A stretch of DNA of 22,563 nt from a virus (Duplodnaviria; Heunggongvirae; Uroviricota; Caudoviricetes): IMG/VR virus record IMGVR_UViG_2563366825_000028. One strand, 5' to 3'. Shown piece by piece: positions 926 through 7,841 of this stretch (position 1 is its first letter; each line of letters starts with the position of its first letter). A program made the translations under genes and the position numbers. Under the pieces are notes generated by a model. That model was not told where the DNA came from and ran no database searches. It saw only the letters and a list, made by a program, of their open reading frames with translations.

Positions 926-2863
926 TCAGCCGCCGGACGCAGTTCCGTAGTTCACACCGGTGATCACCGCCACCGCCGCGGTACGGCGACGACGCCAGTT
1001 GATCCAGCGCTCCGCACGGATGGCCACGCTGCCTGTCTGGAACATGGAAACCAGCTCCACCGGGGACGGCGTGGTACTGTCGCCGGTCGGCTCAGACTGC
1101 ATTTCCAGTGATGCCTCGCGGGACATATCCACTGCCACGCCGCCGTCATCCGCCAGATAAATATCCGGGGCATTCACCAGCACCAGCTGGTCACCCACGT
1201 ACTGGGAGACAATCACCGGCAGCCCCTGGAAGGAGCCACCCAGCAGGGTCATGTCCGGGTATTCCTTCTGACCCAGCGCATTTTTACGCATGGACAGTGC
1301 CAGGGCATTGGTGCTGGACATCAGCCAGACCGCACCGGTGGGCTGCAGGTTTGCTGCCACAAACTGTCCAAACGCAGCCTCTGCATCCGCATCCGGGTTA
1401 CCGGTTGATGCCGTGCCCTTCACATCATGGGTGATGGACGCCGGGGAGACATCTGCCACTGCGGCTTTTTTCGGGTCCACAAAGTCTGTATCCAGACGCG
1501 CCACCACCGCTTCCGCCAGCGCATTACGGACCAGTGCATCAGCAGCCGGACTGGAAAAACGGATCAATTCTTCCGTCAGTACCGCAATGGCCGACACTTT
1601 CGCATGACTGAAGGTGATGGATTCAAAATCAAACTTCGTCAGGGGTTTTGCCTTACCCTCACCCACCCAGCCGGCAGCACCGCCGGACACCTGGGCGTGC
1701 ACACGGATATTGAACGGCACCTGACGAAGTGCAGGGATCCCGCCCTGACCAAATCGCCCGATAATGGTCTGCGGACGCAGGTAATCAATAAAGTCCTGTG
1801 CGTATTCCTGATATTCAGACAGGCTGCCTGCCCACTGCGGATCCGTGGTGGTCCCCGCGCCCACTGCCGATTTCAGGACATGATGCAGACGACTGTCATC
1901 CGGATACTGACGACGGGCCACTTCCAGGGCTTCAGATCGGACGCCTTTAGCCGCAGCCAGCGATTTGGCAAAGCGGGCGAAGCCAATCCCCTTATCCAGT
2001 TTCTGCTCCACACGGATCACCGGCGCAGAAGCCACCGCGGCCACATTCCCGTTACCGGCCTGTTTCACCGGCTGCGCCGTGGCGGCCTTACCGGCTTCCA
2101 GTTCACGCAGGCGCTTCAGGTGCGCATCCACCTGACGGATTTCCGCTGCGGTGTTGTCGTAATGCTCTTCCTCCTCCACATCCAGCGTGCGCCCTTCCTC
2201 TGCGGCTTTGGTCATGACCTCCTCAAGGGAGGCTGCCAGCGCTGCACGCTTGTTTTCAAAACTTTTAATCTGTTCGCCAATATTCATTATGGTCTTTTCC
2301 TTATGAAAAACGGTTGTTGACTGTGCCGCAGCGCCGGCAGAAGATGCGATTTTCACCACCGGTTTCCGGTTGCCGGACGCGGCAGAAAACGGGCGGTCGT
2401 AAGATTTAATGGTCCGGATGGTGCATTCCGCATTCGCGGGCACGGTGACGGCAGACACCTCCATCAGTTCCCAGCGCATAAAATGCAGTCCGCCTCCGTC
2501 CAGAAAGGTGTATTCATGGGGACGGAAGCCCACGGACAGCCCCCTGACCAGCCCGGTCTTAATGGCCGCCCAGACCTCATCCAGCCGGGCAGCCAGTTGC
2601 GACGGCATATCCGGTACGGGCTTCACCAGTGTTGCCGTGATTTCCAGCCCTTCGCTGACCCGGCGCACCGTACACTGCCCCACCGGGCGGGAATGGTCAT
2701 GCTGCCAGAGAAACGGGATCGCACTGCCAAACTCCGCGCCCTCCGGCTCCAGGATGTCACCATCCCGATCCGGAGAAGGCGTTGACGCAATCCCGGTGAT
2801 CACCCGTTCATCCTCACTGAAGGATTTCACCGTCAGCAGGGAACAGGCCCGTTTAAGAGTCAC
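926..2863 (-). CDS. Fused prohead protease / scaffold / HK97-fold major capsid protein (645 aa)
   Basis: The N-terminal ~160 aa look like an HK97-family prohead protease (FLWQHDHSRPVG, GLSVGF, ELMEVSAVTVPAN). The middle is a charged coiled-coil-like linker (EEEEHYDNTAAEIRQVDAHLKRLRELEAG). The C-terminus looks like an HK97-fold major capsid protein (GWVGEGKAKPLTKFDFESITFSHAKVSAIAVLTEELIRFS ... RAERWINWRRR). GTG start at 2863 with AGGAGG 5 nt upstream. Confidence 0.85.
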   Translation of the reverse strand: MTLKRACSLLTVKSFSEDERVITGIASTPSPDRDGDILEPEGAEFGSAIPFLWQHDHSRPVGQCTVRRVSEGLEITATLVKPVPDMPSQLAARLDEVWAAIKTGLVRGLSVGFRPHEYTFLDGGGLHFMRWELMEVSAVTVPANAECTIRTIKSYDRPFSAASGNRKPVVKIASSAGAAAQSTTVFHKEKTIMNIGEQIKSFENKRAALAASLEEVMTKAAEEGRTLDVEEEEHYDNTAAEIRQVDAHLKRLRELEAGKAATAQPVKQAGNGNVAAVASAPVIRVEQKLDKGIGFARFAKSLAAAKGVRSEALEVARRQYPDDSRLHHVLKSAVGAGTTTDPQWAGSLSEYQEYAQDFIDYLRPQTIIGRFGQGGIPALRQVPFNIRVHAQVSGGAAGWVGEGKAKPLTKFDFESITFSHAKVSAIAVLTEELIRFSSPAADALVRNALAEAVVARLDTDFVDPKKAAVADVSPASITHDVKGTASTGNPDADAEAAFGQFVAANLQPTGAVWLMSSTNALALSMRKNALGQKEYPDMTLLGGSFQGLPVIVSQYVGDQLVLVNAPDIYLADDGGVAVDMSREASLEMQSEPTGDSTTPSPVELVSMFQTGSVAIRAERWINWRRRRTAAVAVITGVNYGTASGG

Positions 2864-2926: not shown

Positions 2927-4588
2927 TTATATGAAAAAAACCGCATATTCTTTCTTTTTCGGTTCCGGGTTAAGGGACATCAGGGAGACCGCATTGAACA
3001 GCGCCATCAGCGGGTCAATTTTTCCCCGTCCACTGGCCTGTTTGGTGATAAGAATGGCGTTACCTTTAGGCTCCACCCGGGCATTGCCGACACACCAGGC
3101 CATCAGGGGCTGGTCACCATGCACCAGCACCCCTTCAGCCAGTTTGCGCTCGGTGGTTTTAATGGCCCCGCCCAGTTTCCAGCCCTGGCTTATCCCCACC
3201 ACAATTCCGTCGGGGATCCCGGCTTCCGCCAGTGAATCCAGAATCTGCCCCACCCCTGACGGGTCAATACCGATATGGTCCAGTAACTCAGCCTCATGAA
3301 TGCGACGCACATATTCCGCCACTTCCGCCGTGTCATCCCCGATACGCCGGACAATGGTCATATCTCCACAGGCAACAAGATCCTGAAACCGGGACGCCTC
3401 GCTCTTCCGTCGGACCACCGCGGTTTCATGCGCCCAGGCATGGCCCCAGCCCAGCCATTCGCGGGTCTCCCGGTCACGCCCAATCACATACATCCCCAGC
3501 AGATCATCCAGCCCTCCGCCGTCAATCCCCACCGTCACCACATCAGCACGACGCAGGATATCGTCCAGGCTGATACAACGGCCCTGCTCTTCCCAGAAAT
3601 CAGCCCCCGCCCAGCGGTCAGAGCGCAGGGCAAGACCAATTTCCACATTGGCGTGTTTTGACATGAACCCCCGGAATGTCTCTTCACCGGCTTCCCGGGC
3701 TTTACGGTACTCCCGGTACAGAAAGGCCTCATCCACTGAATAGCCGAGATTCGGATTGACCATGGCGAGGTTTTCCATCAGCAGGTGAGCCCCGCTTTCC
3801 ACCATTTCAGGAGGGTGTTCAAATATCACCGGCAGAAAGTGCGGATCATGAATTTTGCCGTCGCGCACATCCCGGGCGTACTGCAGTTTCTGTCTGAACA
3901 CCCCGGCGGGCGGTTCATTCGACTGGGTGGTCGTATACACCACAAACCCTTCCGGGCGGGAGGCAAGGCCGCCGATGGCTTCACGTAACATGTCCTCCGC
4001 CTTGTACTGCTTGCCAAACAGCCACAACTCATCAATCAGCGTACCCACGGACTTGATACCGGACACCGTATTCGGATCGGCTGCCACCACCTTCAGGGTG
4101 GTGTCTGTCACCCTGTGGGTGATGGTCCGGATATGGGTCTGTACCTGGCAGAGGTCATCCAGATCATCGTCACGTCGTACCATATCCCGGGCAGGGTTGA
4201 AGGCGTTGGCCGCCACCTCCACAGTCGGGGCCAGAATCGTGTAACCCGCCGCCTGCCGCCAGTTCAGTAACAGCGCCGTCATCATGATCCCCGCGGCCAG
4301 CGTGGACTTCGAGTTTTTCTTGGGGATAAGGATAAAAACTTCCTTGATATGGCGTACACCGGTCTGCGCATCGTAGGAGCCAAACAGGGCCGCCACCAGG
4401 TCAAACACCCACGGTGCACAGGACTCCCCGAACGTAGGGCTACCAGGTGCATCCACAATCCGCAGTTGTTTAAAAATCGCCAGGGCATGTGCGGCCTCGT
4501 CCGGATAAATCGGATCCGGAATAATCGACAGCCCCTTTTTCAGGCGCTCAGCCCAGTCCGGGCAGGCTGTGCTCCATACAGGTATCAT
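2927..4588 (-). CDS. Terminase large subunit (Terminase_1-type ATPase/nuclease)
   Basis: 553 aa. Walker-A-like segment ILIPKKNSKSTLAAGIMMTALLL and C-terminal nuclease-domain motifs (VTVGIDGGG.DD, KIDPLMALFNAVSLM). The ATG at 4588 overlaps the terS stop (ATGA coupling). Confidence 0.9.
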   Translation of the reverse strand: MIPVWSTACPDWAERLKKGLSIIPDPIYPDEAAHALAIFKQLRIVDAPGSPTFGESCAPWVFDLVAALFGSYDAQTGVRHIKEVFILIPKKNSKSTLAAGIMMTALLLNWRQAAGYTILAPTVEVAANAFNPARDMVRRDDDLDDLCQVQTHIRTITHRVTDTTLKVVAADPNTVSGIKSVGTLIDELWLFGKQYKAEDMLREAIGGLASRPEGFVVYTTTQSNEPPAGVFRQKLQYARDVRDGKIHDPHFLPVIFEHPPEMVESGAHLLMENLAMVNPNLGYSVDEAFLYREYRKAREAGEETFRGFMSKHANVEIGLALRSDRWAGADFWEEQGRCISLDDILRRADVVTVGIDGGGLDDLLGMYVIGRDRETREWLGWGHAWAHETAVVRRKSEASRFQDLVACGDMTIVRRIGDDTAEVAEYVRRIHEAELLDHIGIDPSGVGQILDSLAEAGIPDGIVVGISQGWKLGGAIKTTERKLAEGVLVHGDQPLMAWCVGNARVEPKGNAILITKQASGRGKIDPLMALFNAVSLMSLNPEPKKKEYAVFFI

Positions 4589-5148
4589 CCGTTGCCCTCA
4601 TTATCGTTATTCACCACCAGTCGGGGTGGCGGTGGCACCGCAAAACGGTTAGCCGCTTTTTTCGCGGCATCACCTTTTGCCGATTTTTTCCCGGTATCCC
4701 CTTTTTTATGGTGCGTGAACTGCGCCAGACGCCAGGCCGCATCCAGTGCCAGTTTCGGATCAATGCAGAGGTTTTCCACCAGGATCCGCCCCATGGCTTT
4801 CACCGGATCGGGAAGACCATCCTCCATATATTCAATACCAGGAGACATCACCGCGGACGGTGGCATCTCCGGATTGTTTTCGTCCGGCTGTGGTATTGCA
4901 GCCGCCTCACGGCGACGGGGTTTATCCTCCTGCTCTGATTTTTTCTGCCGGTAAACAGGAACCTCATCCACCTCCACCGTTTCGCACTGTTTACGGGCTA
5001 TAAACGCGAGCACCTCCGGATCTTTTGCCAGCTGCGAGCCTTTAACCCTGGCGGTCTTCGCCGAATAACCGGCGGCAATGGCTGACGCTGTTTTGTTTTT
5101 CCCGGACATGAGCGCCAGCGCAAATTTTCGTTTTTGCGTTGTCAGCAC
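4585..5148 (-). CDS. Terminase small subunit (Terminase_2 / P27-type)
   Basis: N-terminus LTTQKRKFALALMSGKNKTASAIAAGYSAKTARVKGSQLAKDPEV fits the HTH signature of Terminase_2 small subunits. GTG start with GGAGGAGG upstream; the stop overlaps the terL start. Confidence 0.75.
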   Translation of the reverse strand: MLTTQKRKFALALMSGKNKTASAIAAGYSAKTARVKGSQLAKDPEVLAFIARKQCETVEVDEVPVYRQKKSEQEDKPRRREAAAIPQPDENNPEMPPSAVMSPGIEYMEDGLPDPVKAMGRILVENLCIDPKLALDAAWRLAQFTHHKKGDTGKKSAKGDAAKKAANRFAVPPPPRLVVNNDNEGNG

Positions 5149-5222
5149 AGCCTCCTCCCGGGTCCAGAACGCACTCAGCCGGGTATGGTTCAGCCCATTT
5201 TTCCCGGCGTCTCATGCCGCAA

Positions 5223-5346
5223 ATGTTAACTGCTGCCTGGTTAACATTTGCTGAAAAAGCCAGTTAACATTTTTTCCGCACAACAAACTGAATAATAAAG
5301 ATAAAAACCGCAAAAATGCCCGGGCAGCCAGTTAACATGTTAACTG
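5223..5346. repeat. Cluster of five GTTAAC-centred motifs, including the perfect 18-bp palindrome CAGTTAACATGTTAACTG (5329-5346); candidate cos / terminase-recognition region
   Basis: Copies are ATGTTAACTG (5223-5232), GGTTAACAT (5239-5247), CAGTTAACAT (5261-5270) and the palindrome at 5329-5346. They lie in the 289-bp gap between the HNH stop and the terS start, where HK97-like cos phages carry cos. Confidence 0.6.
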
Positions 5347-5437
5347 CCCTGAAACGGGAATTTTTTCTCTGCGTGAGAGGGGGCGCGGTGTCCGGGACGA
5401 TCGTTTTTATCGCCGGATGATCCCCCCCCAGGGCGGG

Positions 5438-5803
5438 TCACAGTCCGATGATATCGTCTGCCCTGCCACGACCTCCGGACACTTCCGGCAACGTCGGGTC
5501 CGGCATACCACTCGCCGCTTCACTGGCTGACTTCTGGCGATGACATTCAGTACAGAGCGTCCAGAGATTCGTCTCCTCATTACCACCACCGAACTGAAGT
5601 GCAATTCGGTGATCGAGTTCACTGTCACAGAGGTCAACCACACGCCCACAGAGACAGCACTGCCCGGCGTCCCTCAGCCAGATATGACGCTTGAGGGAAA
5701 CACGTGCACTGCCACTGACACGACGCTGTTCCCCCTTCAGAATATTCACCCGTCGGGTATTCAGTGTTTTGATTCTGCTCTGGAGTGTACGAAGCTCAGC
5801 CAT
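5438..5803 (-). CDS. HNH homing-type endonuclease (terminase-associated)
   Basis: 121 aa with the HNH motif CCLCGRVVDLCDSELDHRIALQFGGGNEETNLWTLCTECH. ATG at 5803 with GGGGA RBS. Sits directly upstream of terS, as HNH proteins do in cos-packaging phages. Confidence 0.85.
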   Translation of the reverse strand: MAELRTLQSRIKTLNTRRVNILKGEQRRVSGSARVSLKRHIWLRDAGQCCLCGRVVDLCDSELDHRIALQFGGGNEETNLWTLCTECHRQKSASEAASGMPDPTLPEVSGGRGRADDIIGL

Positions 5804-5844
5804 GTAAAATCCCCGTCATATGGCAATCAGTAAAGGAAATAAAT

Positions 5845-6045
5845 ATGTCATCGAAAAACCGGACCCGCAGAACCACAACCCGCAATATCCGTTTCCCCAA
5901 TCACATGATTGAACAGATCAACATCGCCCTTGAGCATAAAGGATCCGGTAACTTTTCAGCGTGGGTTATTGAAGCCTGCAGGAGAAGGCTGGCAACAGAT
6001 GCAACGCATCTGCGCCCGGCCAGCATGAAAAATAACGAGAAATGA
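5845..6045 (+). CDS. Small YlcI/YnfO-like (DUF3950) prophage protein, possible ribbon-helix-helix fold
   Basis: 66 aa, MSSKNRTRRTTTRNIRFPNHMIEQINIALEHKGSGNFSAWVIEACRRRL..., with AAAGGAAA RBS before ATG 5845. It resembles the small YlcI/YnfO proteins of E. coli cryptic prophages (from memory). The track ORF 5785..6045 starts further upstream in frame, but the RBS supports 5845. Confidence 0.6.
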   Translation: MSSKNRTRRTTTRNIRFPNHMIEQINIALEHKGSGNFSAWVIEACRRRLATDATHLRPASMKNNEK

Positions 6046-6176: not shown

Positions 6177-6509
6177 TCAGGGTGCAGAAGGACTAAAGAT
6201 AAACGTTTTCTTCACGCCTTTACACGGCCTGTCCTTCTCAAATCGCCATTTTGCCATCGCCTTTACAACCTGCTCATCAAACAAATGGTGCGGCTCTGAA
6301 CGGATAAACTCAATTCGGGTGACAGTACCATCAGCACCAATATCAAACTTCACATCAACCCGTCCCTTTATATAATTTGCCGCTGCATAGGCCGGATATT
6401 GTGGTAATGCCTTCACCAACTGTCGGGGCATATCTGTTTTATGTTGCGTACAGCCCATAACCAGAGAAGACAACAAAATAATTAACGGAAGATTTCTTTT
6501 CATTTTCAT
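6177..6509 (-). CDS. Lipoprotein with TonB C-terminal-like domain (prophage accessory gene)
   Basis: Signal peptide plus lipobox (MKMKRNLPLIILLSSLVMGC), then PQYPAYAAANYIKGRVDVKFDIGADGTVTRIEFIRSEPHHLFDEQVVKAMAKWRFE, which fits the TonB_C signature (YP..A...G.V.V.F.....G.V.......S.....FD.....A...WRF). Start taken at ATG 6509; the track uses GTG 6518. Confidence 0.75.
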   Translation of the reverse strand: MKMKRNLPLIILLSSLVMGCTQHKTDMPRQLVKALPQYPAYAAANYIKGRVDVKFDIGADGTVTRIEFIRSEPHHLFDEQVVKAMAKWRFEKDRPCKGVKKTFIFSPSAP

Positions 6510-6523
6510 TCCCGGCACAGATA

Positions 6524-6936: not shown

Positions 6937-7194
6937 CTACTTCGCTTTTGCTTCCGCTCGCTTACACCGGCGCTTTTCTTTCTTCTCGGCTTTTGCCATG
7001 TCCATGAATGCCTGCATGATCGAGTTCCGCATCATGTAGCTGACAAAGTGATGATTGACACAGCCGTTGAGGCGCAACTGCTCGCCAAACTCATCCACCG
7101 AGGCCAATGCTTCCATCACGCCCTTCTCGCCTTTCATGAACGCTGAGAAGTCGCGCCCCGCTCTGGAGGCGCATTCAATGACACGATCACTCAT
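6937..7194 (-). CDS. Hypothetical protein (85 aa), translationally coupled to the KilA-N gene
   Basis: ATGA overlap with the upstream gene stop (7191-7194). Lys/Arg-rich C-terminal tail. No family recognised. Confidence 0.5.
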   Translation of the reverse strand: MSDRVIECASRAGRDFSAFMKGEKGVMEALASVDEFGEQLRLNGCVNHHFVSYMMRNSIMQAFMDMAKAEKKEKRRCKRAEAKAK

Positions 7195-7688
7195 CCCGGA
7201 AGCCCGGGGATTGTGATCTGCAACTGGTTAGCCAGGGAGTTAATCTCAGCGATCAAACCAGGTTTCGTGTAGCGCCATGCCGCAAGGCCTTGCCCGCAGA
7301 AGCTCGCCATATCTTTTTTCTGATCAAACTCATGACACTTCATATTGAGCTGCGCACTTAAGCTGTTGCGATGCTGGAGTTCTCCGGTGAAGTAGTCATC
7401 CAGGACTTTATAGGCTGCATATTTAAATCCGGGGTTTAGCCATGCTGCATAATCATAAGCAACAAACTTCCCGCCATATGTTCCACCGTGTACACCGCGC
7501 TCAGTAAAAACCACAGATTCGTGGTTTTTCTCCAGCTCGGCTAAGAACTCTTTGGTCTGCTTGTTTCGCAGGTAGTGGTACGGAGATTCAGATTCACTTT
7601 TACCACTGGCTTTCCACATATCAGTGAGGCAGATCATGCCATCTTCAGCGACACGGATTGGCTGATTGAAGAGGGTTAATGATTTCAT
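7191..7688 (-). CDS. KilA-N domain protein (antirepressor/Bro-N-like)
   Basis: MKSLTLFNQPIRVAEDGMICLTDMWKASGK... is typical of the KilA-N DNA-binding domain. ATG 7688 has AGGT 8 nt upstream; the track's GTG at 7757 is an in-frame alternative. Confidence 0.75.
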   Translation of the reverse strand: MKSLTLFNQPIRVAEDGMICLTDMWKASGKSESESPYHYLRNKQTKEFLAELEKNHESVVFTERGVHGGTYGGKFVAYDYAAWLNPGFKYAAYKVLDDYFTGELQHRNSLSAQLNMKCHEFDQKKDMASFCGQGLAAWRYTKPGLIAEINSLANQLQITIPGLPG

Positions 7689-7841
7689 GTCGTATACCTG
7701 TTCTTTGAAATGAACCTTTGCCGCATAGGAAACCAGCCCACCGAGGCTCGCCAGCACTAACTGGTATCCTCAAAGGCTCATTCCAAAGGGGCAGGCTCGG
7801 TGGTTATCATGCGCTGCGGTGCGCGGTGAAATTCAGATATG

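Follow-up and report, generated by a model that had tools for sequence, protein, structure and literature searches.

The interval at positions 5149 to 5437 of the window (the whole stretch of DNA analyzed, 22,563 nucleotides) very probably holds the cos region of the phage, with the cut at 5377/5378, and the GTTAAC repeats within it lie in a cosB-like position between the cut and terS and are not the cleavage site. Given their layout and the way their motif varies with the DNA-reading helix of the small terminase subunit (TerS), the repeats are predicted with good, though not complete, confidence to be TerS recognition sites. A cos site accompanied by small-terminase repeats is of an expected, ordinary kind; it is newly delineated here for this phage group of medical relevance. 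No description of these repeats was found in the part of the literature that was searched, and published accounts of Pankowvirus phages covered by a limited search made no mention of cos.

Packaging genes and host phage group

Sequence comparison of window positions 5100 to 5500 identified ∼90 long-tailed Stx1a-, Stx2a-, and Stx2c-converting phages and prophages with 96 to 98% identity, including 1717, 2851, YYZ-2008, BP-4795, JLK-2012, and phi330, of the genus Pankowvirus. By this comparison, the window is assigned to a Pankowvirus-type Stx prophage with its packaging genes on the minus strand (Table 1). The interval is exactly the gap between the genes for an HNH endonuclease and TerS, and these Pfam-supported minus-strand genes confirmed the location of the array given in the first-pass annotation. 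The order is HNH-cos-terS-terL, and the HNH endonuclease, encoded directly upstream of cos-terS-terL, is the packaging partner. The terL product shared 55 to 60% identity with TerL of Burkholderia Bcep176-like and Pseudomonas siphophages.

Several features of the surrounding sequence were recorded. The protease-capsid fusion gene lies directly after terL, with no portal gene between the two, and a Pfam search with the plus-strand open reading frames at 97-675 and 543-950 gave no match. Upstream of the HNH gene are genes for a DUF3950 protein on the opposite strand (5785-6045, plus), a 113-aa protein with a TonB C-terminal domain (6177-6518, minus), and a KilA-N/ORF11CD3 protein (7191-7757, minus); a TonB_C fragment inside a phage late region is unusual. 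The phi330 record (L001, PV189401.1; 728-1198) carries a hypothetical CDS opposite to the HNH strand and leaves HNH unannotated, which is probably an annotation error.

Table 1. Features of the packaging region in window coordinates
Feature	Position	Strand	Sequence	Remarks
Prohead protease-major capsid fusion gene	926..2863	−		645 aa; Peptidase_S78 and Phage_capsid
terL	2927..4588	−		553 aa; Pfam TerL_ATPase and TerL_nuclease
terS	4585..5148	−		187-aa product; Pfam Terminase_2 (PF03592, E = 1.3e−8)
terS Shine-Dalgarno	5151-5158	−	GGAGGAGG	with GTG start at 5146-5148
Sites 4 and 5, inverted pair	5219-5230 and 5240-5251	both	GCAAATGTTAAC-N9-GTTAACATTTGC	9-nt spacer
Site 3	5261..5272	−	AAATGTTAACTG	with flank, ATGTTAACTGGCT, copying the right half of the palindrome
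T-rich spacer	5273..5328	−		T-runs every 8-12 nt, at offsets 13, 22, 30, and 42
Sites 1 and 2, perfect 18-bp palindrome	5329-5346	both	CAGTTAACATGTTAACTG	inverted-repeat search; center 40 nt after the cut
Four copies of 10-mer	5223-5232(−), 5261-5270(+), 5329-5338(+), 5337-5346(−)		CAGTTAACAT	exact match
cos core	5356..5393	−	GGACACCGCGCCCCCTCTCACGCAGAGAAAAAATTCCC	38 nt; conserved across relatives
A-tract	5359..5370	−	AGAGAAAAAATT	+8 to +19 from the cut; in all relatives
Putative 10-nt 3′ cohesive end	5378-5387	−	CGCGCCCCCT	equivalent of CGCCCCCCCT, one base different
Degenerate remnant of upstream GTAAACATCGATCG site	5398..5411	−	GATAAAAACGATCG	array-less relatives carry GGAGGTAAACATCGATCGC or GGTGTCAACGCCGATCGC there
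G8 run (C8 on plus strand)	5422..5429	−		3′ end 44 nt upstream of the top-strand cut
HNH endonuclease gene	5438..5803	−		121 aa; Pfam HNH (PF01844, E = 1.2e−6); HNH/DNase annotation in related phages

Cut site and cohesive ends

Over the array and cos stretch, phage Lys8385Vzw was 97 to 98% identical to the window. PhageTerm assigned Lys8385Vzw to the class cos, with 3′ cohesive ends and the 10-nt cos sequence CGCCCCCCCT (PMC7946995). The GenBank record of this phage starts with CTCACGCAGAGAAAAAATTCCCG (CTCACGCAGAG...) and ends with ...GGACACCGCCCCCCCT, so that the record boundary falls exactly between ...CGCCCCCCCT and CTCACGC. Because the window equivalent of this cohesive end is 5387..5378, the top strand would be cut between 5378 and 5377, and the bottom strand between 5388 and 5387, a position that derives from a single PhageTerm analysis, done on a related phage with a one-base difference in its cohesive end. 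The gap had been proposed as a candidate cos site, and the published end of a near-identical phage, mapping inside it, supports that proposal. The cut lies 32 to 40 nt upstream of the 18-bp palindrome in the packaging direction. The boundaries of the Burkholderia vB_PR5 and Pseudomonas CF53a records fall elsewhere than the cut position of Lys8385Vzw and were therefore not used as evidence for the ends.

A conserved cut-site module

The cos region was compared with those of 22 enterobacterial loci (Atlantibacter, Kluyvera, Enterobacter, Citrobacter, Erwinia, Pantoea, Serratia, Morganella, and others) whose TerS proteins were 33 to 49% identical to that of the window. A contig scan with the single window TerS as the query identified no relatives; an alignment as the query retrieved them. 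Among the viral scans, the query P0113 gave no matches, and nearly all matches to A1 and P0023 were near-identical phages.

The comparison with related cos regions, suggested alongside the original proposal, showed that the cut-site core and the G-run are shared. An almost unchanged GGACACCGCGCCCCCTCTCACGCACAGAAAAAATTCCC (window 5393..5356) was present in 22/22 enterobacterial loci, and an exact copy of the core was found in 114 retrieved loci. A pattern scan of IMG/VR for the core identified >120 loci, 116 of them with a TerS gene just downstream. In Burkholderia phage vB_PR5, a recognizable version of the core spans the junction of the two ends of the record. Runs of G7 to G10 were located 35 to 45 nt upstream of the core in 21/22 enterobacterial relatives (the position is masked in L022) and were also present in the satellite-like islands described below; in HK97, a G9 run precedes the cos cut by 42 nt, compared with 44 nt in the window. 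The first-pass annotation had mentioned the C8 homopolymer as an incidental aside and placed it at 5423-5430, one base from its actual position of 5422-5429. Judged by its conservation in the relatives and HK97, the C8/G8 run is a left-hand element of this cos class. The A-tract of the window (+8 to +19) is analogous to the HK97 A-tract needed for TerS binding (cos +15 to +29; PMC11331095).

Two further observations concern the sequence around the G-run. In the PPompW prophage L002 (LC567822.1; 3775-5233), the IS110-family element ISEc20 was found inside the C/G homopolymer, equivalent to window positions ∼5422-5429, with the junction sequences GATCCCCC on one side of the IS and CCCCCCCGAAAGG on the other. 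Past ISEc20, neither HNH nor the lysis genes are present, and the next genes are those for tRNAs and Q; several PPompW records are interrupted at the same point (query position ∼278). AT-rich repeats (AAATCATTTCAAATG / AATGATA..ATTATCATTTGCA) were located between the HNH stop codon and the G-run in HK97 (L271, last ∼110 nt) and in several relatives (L010, L014, L015, L017, L018, L019, and L023; 50 to 110 nt upstream of the G-run). These repeats are loosely Fur-box-like and are absent from the window and the other relatives.

Structure of the repeat array

GTTAAC was identified at positions 5225, 5240, 5263, 5331, and 5339, that is, five copies inside 125 bp. The whole window contained 11 copies compared with 4.1 expected, no 125-bp span held more than two in 1000 dinucleotide shuffles of the window, and the Poisson probability of five copies per 125 bp was ∼4e−11. 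The position count and the shuffles confirmed the earlier claim of five GTTAAC-type copies in about 125 bp, and an inverted-repeat search recovered the perfect 18-bp palindrome that had been reported with them. The 10-mer CAGTTAACAT occurred exactly four times in the window, all in the array stretch; the fifth copy, at 5240-5251, reads GTTAACATTTGC and is flanked by CC, not CAG. The inverted pair formed by sites 4 and 5 (5219-5251) adds to the earlier description. All five half-sites lie on the stretch from the cut to terS, at +32 to +160. The terS start is 70 to 190 nt farther downstream, and its Shine-Dalgarno sequence is clear of the sites. The T-rich spacer between the palindrome and site 3 could possibly impose an intrinsic bend.

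Variation of the array across lineages

In most of the 22 relatives the distance from the cut to terS is 38 to 39 nt, compared with 229 nt in the window lineage, and the extra DNA in the latter is the repeat array. Most relatives in this set had no array at all; because they manage without one, the array may be accessory or in part a relic of a duplicated terS start. Intermediate relatives shared a common layout, consisting of an abutting palindrome, a T-rich spacer of ∼55 nt, a single site, an inverted pair spaced by GGCAGC, and terS. The motif differed between lineages: CAGTTAACAT in the window, L091, and L095; GGTTAACAT with CCACC flanks in L088; and TATAAACAT or GTAAACAT in L086, L087, and L092, which had no GTTAAC at all. 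All five sites change motif together between lineages, and the spacer drifts freely. L086 and L088 have spacers that are equally T-rich and of the same length but differ in sequence, and in both, site 3 is altered to match their own palindromes. The inverted pair with the GGCAGC spacer was found with a different motif in L086, L088, and L092.

Within the close lineage, the GTTAAC cores and the 18-bp palindrome were invariant in 55 distinct relatives. As the central spacer, and with it the whole center of the gap, is also nearly invariant there, the invariance of the motif (∼p = 0.07) does not discriminate for selection, and close-lineage conservation was dropped as evidence of it.

Probable origin of the palindrome at the terS start codon

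In the array-less relatives, terS starts within GTAAAC-ATG-TTAACA or GTTAAC-GTG-TTAACA, an imperfect palindrome on the start codon. This palindrome lies ∼40 nt after the cut; the window palindrome is centered equally far from it, and the flanks align. The Leu2-Thr3 codons, TTA-ACA, complete the start-codon palindrome in 21/21 loci in which terS abuts the core, even in the segments from Burkholderia and Pseudomonas phages, whose GC content is 60%. In unrelated Terminase_2 genes of other phyla, the codon pairs at the Leu2-Thr3 position varied, and TTA-ACA was found among them only in L077 (Bacillus). The 21/21 occurrence of TTA-ACA argues for a constraint on the terS start as a DNA site, over and above what coding requires. 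Loci with a separate array or extra repeats used CTG-ACA/G. The start codon itself tracked the motif class in the IMG/VR loci and L025 to L027, with ATG in GTAAAC-ATG and GTG in GTTAAC-GTG. In L025, residue 2 is Phe and not Leu (GTG-TTT-ACG), and the coding half-site becomes GTTTAC.

The window palindrome thus appears, from these alignments, to be a former terS-start site left behind after the start moved ∼190 nt downstream. The array probably arose from a TerS-bound palindrome on the terS start codon, through this shift of the start and the addition of three sites.

A 24-codon hydrophobic open reading frame (MLTGCPGIFAVFIFIIQFVVRKKC; window 5264-5338, minus) has its ATG at the center of the palindrome and its stop codon in site 3. 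It is intact in L088 and broken in L086, and because of the latter it is regarded as a probable relic of the former terS start combined with T-rich DNA.

TerS fold and co-variation with the repeat motif

The N-terminal domain of TerS consists of four predicted helices (residues 1-56, pLDDT 93 to 96 by AF2). The best Foldseek match of this domain was the SF6 TerS DNA-binding domain (4zc3; TM, 0.84; rmsd, 1.6 Å; probability, 1.00), and the best TerS matches were those of SF6, PaP3, and NV1. On the strength of the model, the window TerS is classed as SF6-type with an N-terminal helix-turn-helix (HTH). HK97 TerS (gp1) was absent from the Foldseek matches, and Pfam gives only Terminase_2 for the window TerS. 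Predicted helix 33-41 aligned with the SF6 TerS recognition helix in both structure and sequence.

Five recognition-helix classes corresponded to five motifs, each present at several sites. AKTARVKGSQL or GKTARVKGSRL was found with GTTAACAT arrays (window lineage and L088), KSARCKGSQL with TAAACAT arrays (L086, L087, and L092), and KTARVKGWQL with AAAGTTACAC repeats (satellite-like islands). The two remaining classes are array-less. EKSARSKGSQL accompanied GTAAACAT at two sites (∼33 IMG/VR loci and L006-L014, L016, and others), and there the start site carried TAAAC in each of the ∼33 loci and the upstream site GTAAAC in 27/33. EKTARSQGSRL accompanied GT(T/C)AACG at two sites (9 IMG/VR loci and L025-L027), with GTTAAC or GTTGAC and a GTG start, and upstream GTCAAC (GTGAAC in one) in 9/9. 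The residues that distinguish the classes, 32, 35, and 38, map to the N-cap and one face of predicted helix 33-41. Between the window and L086, TerL is 95.5% identical, and the N-terminal 60 residues of TerS are 86.7% identical, with the changes T32S and V35C; HNH identity to the window is 88% for L086 compared with 92 to 93% for phages with the same motif. A motif that shifts with the TerS helix beside a constant core and TerL is what TerS recognition sites would be expected to show. The co-variation comprises few independent lineage changes, and its counts are inflated by phylogenetic non-independence.

Simple codes did not describe these data. A clean correspondence of T32 with TTAAC and S32 with TAAAC is a trend only, and a code of one residue for one base was rejected: L018 has S32 and TTAAC, and L006 mixes both half-site types in one palindrome.

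TerS also varied in length. A 138-aa form (P0036; L095 2501-2917) lacking the central linker was found on 32 contigs, and a longer form matched over 708 nt (L173 1501-2208); both occur in otherwise near-identical phages. The linker (residues ∼60-105) is poorly conserved and of low confidence and seems freely variable.

Satellite-like islands with their own TerS and repeats

Two kinds of Escherichia coli island carried TerS, with no terL or HNH among the called neighboring genes. In the first (L089/L090; terS at 2018-2491 of L089), AlpA and a Y1 transposase are encoded upstream; in the second (L093/L094 and L256-L265; terS at 3001-3489 of L093), a D5-type primase or AAA_25 protein is encoded upstream and a faint capsid homologue downstream. 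The islands adjoin an AIDA-type autotransporter gene. Both kinds keep the G-run and the cos core and have their own GTTACAC-type repeats (AAAGTTACAC, two to six copies). Island L089 and phage L088 shared ∼96% identity across ∼85 nt of the cut-site module. Their TerS proteins were 82.5% identical over the C-terminal 80 residues, where contact with TerL is expected, and only 47.5% over the N-terminal 60, with the change S38W. A fixed cutting module beside an exchangeable HTH and repeats is the pattern expected if TerS reads the repeats and TerL and HNH read the core.

A wider reading is put forward tentatively, as a possibility that falls somewhat short of being probable. The recognition helix and the repeat motif may together act as a specificity module that can be exchanged, while the TerL/HNH cut-site module beside it stays fixed, and phages and TerS-only islands may partition access by swapping the HTH and repeats only. 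Residues 32, 35, and 38 might then act as a partly readable code, and the ancestral site might have doubled as a terS start-codon operator. A limited literature search found no published description of a cos/HNH-type satellite with a swapped HTH and repeats.

Proposed packaging mechanism and alternatives

The interval is proposed to be the cos region of an HNH-dependent, 3′-overhang cos phage, read on the minus strand. TerL and HNH would cut in the conserved core to produce the 10-nt 3′ end CGCGCCCCCT (5378-5387), and the G8 run 44 nt upstream and the downstream A-tract would be parts of the conserved cut-site module. The five half-sites, 32 to 160 nt past the cut on the first-packaged side by terS, would form a cosB-like array bound by the HTH domains of an oligomeric SF6-type TerS. 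TerS bound to the array could mark the DNA as phage and position TerL and HNH on the core, possibly with bending or wrapping of the DNA, in a division of labor in which TerS would read the repeats and TerL and HNH the core. The suggestion that the array is a terminase-recognition site has therefore gained comparative support, since its motif co-varies with the TerS helix across phages and islands.

It could be argued that the repeats are an evolutionary relic of a duplicated ancestral terS 5′ end (ATGTTAACTG...), carried beside cos with no present function. The homology of the palindrome with the terS start of relatives, the copying of its right half and flank by site 3, the 24-codon frame that still starts at the palindrome ATG, and the lack of an array in most relatives are all consistent with such an origin. 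A relic would be expected to decay independently at each site, yet in three diverged lineages the five sites share a motif particular to the lineage, the layout persists despite drift in the spacer sequence, satellites have built arrays of their own, and the cores are invariant in the 55 distinct sequences, so this explanation is considered unlikely. No more favored, and also improbable, is the view that the sites serve as operators, controlling terS and terL transcription or translation through TerS autoregulation or another regulator, and are not primarily packaging sites. A palindrome on the terS start codon beside the Shine-Dalgarno sequence, as in the array-less relatives, would be natural for autoregulation, and whether the start is ATG or GTG goes with the motif class. 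The window sites are off the Shine-Dalgarno sequence and 70 to 190 nt from the start codon, and the pairing of the islands' own TerS and repeats with a shared cut site follows the logic of packaging specificity. The searches for a promoter, terminator, or RNA family likewise gave no support to a late promoter or regulator site, which the first-pass annotation had named as an alternative. No sigma-70-like promoter on the gene strand and no terminator were identified in the gap, the sole hit being a weak promoter-like match on the wrong strand; an Rfam search of the gap returned only sub-threshold miRNA models; and RNA folding of the gap was marginal compared with shuffles (z = −1.99). An operator role may be an additional function, compatible with packaging.

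Reading of the repeats by HNH or a host factor instead of TerS, to assemble the cutting complex, is the least probable of the alternatives and is regarded as very unlikely. In HK97-type phages, cleavage at cos depends on HNH (cited to Kala et al., 2014), and HNH identity falls in the changed-motif lineage L086, so that in the phage lineages taken by themselves HNH could also be the reader. The islands pair their own motif with their own TerS helix and have no called HNH gene, and the residues that set the classes apart are on the recognition helix of TerS; both points argue against HNH as the reader. A host factor is disfavored by the lack of an integration host factor (IHF) consensus in the array: WATCAANNNNTTR had no match at ≤1 mismatch within 5149-5437. 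An IHF site in the spacer was rejected on this negative consensus search; the spacer is T-rich instead.

Comparison with known packaging systems

In lambda, cosB (R3-I1-R2-R1) is bound by gpNu1, bent by IHF, and adjoins cosN. The predicted sites in the window resemble these in their location on the first-packaged side, flanked by the cut and the small-terminase gene, in having an A/T-rich segment that parts the first site from the rest, and in the separability of the recognition and cutting modules. In lambda, the overhang is 5′ and 12 nt long, gpNu1 is a winged-HTH protein from a different family, an IHF site is present, and there is no HNH partner. In contrast, the window has a 10-nt 3′ overhang (based on Lys8385Vzw), a Terminase_2/SF6-type TerS, an HNH gene, and no IHF consensus, and its sites form palindromic pairs, whereas the R sites of lambda are not paired.

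In SPP1 and SF6, the pacL and pacR boxes bound by G1P flank the pacC cut; packaging is by the headful mechanism, with no cohesive ends and no HNH. The window shares the TerS family, the DNA-binding fold, and the use of short repeated boxes for an oligomeric TerS, and the sites of the array-less relatives flank the cut at about −35 and +40, as pacL and pacR do. In contrast to the headful packaging of SPP1 and SF6, cos ends are reported for the near-identical Lys8385Vzw. The window site upstream of the cut is degenerate, and the good ones all lie on a single side.

Satellites are known to redirect packaging by several routes, including the TerS-S of Staphylococcus aureus pathogenicity islands (SaPIs) with its own pac site, Rpp of E. 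coli phage-inducible chromosomal islands, and the use of the helper's cos by cos SaPIs. The islands described here resemble SaPI TerS-S in having their own TerS and their own repeats and no called terL; they differ in keeping the helper-type core and the C-terminal tail of TerS and swapping only the HTH and the repeats.

HK97 (gp74 HNH, gp1 TerS, gp2 TerL) shares with the window the order HNH-cos-terS-terL, the 10-nt 3′ overhang, the G-run 42 to 44 nt upstream of the cut, and an A-tract shortly downstream. In HK97, TerS binding occurs at one 15-bp site (+15 to +29), with the DNA threaded through the central channel and held there by an arginine clamp (PMC11331095). TerS binding downstream of the cut, demonstrated for HK97 (PMC11331095), is predicted for the window. 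Unlike HK97, the window combines a TerS of the SF6 HTH type with five candidate HTH-type half-sites at +32 to +160.

Implications for Shiga toxin phages

Shiga toxin genes are spread by long-tailed Stx1, Stx2a, and Stx2c phages, whose packaging signal decides which DNA is transduced. The cut site and the candidate array together supply a minimal cis element to use in transduction assays and in predictions of which prophages can still be packaged, an example being the PPompW prophages that carry an IS in the G-run. The series of TerS helix and motif variants offers a test set for DNA reading by SF6-type TerS, for which wrapping and threading are debated. Lastly, the cos module helps to identify satellites that can be mobilized by these phages.
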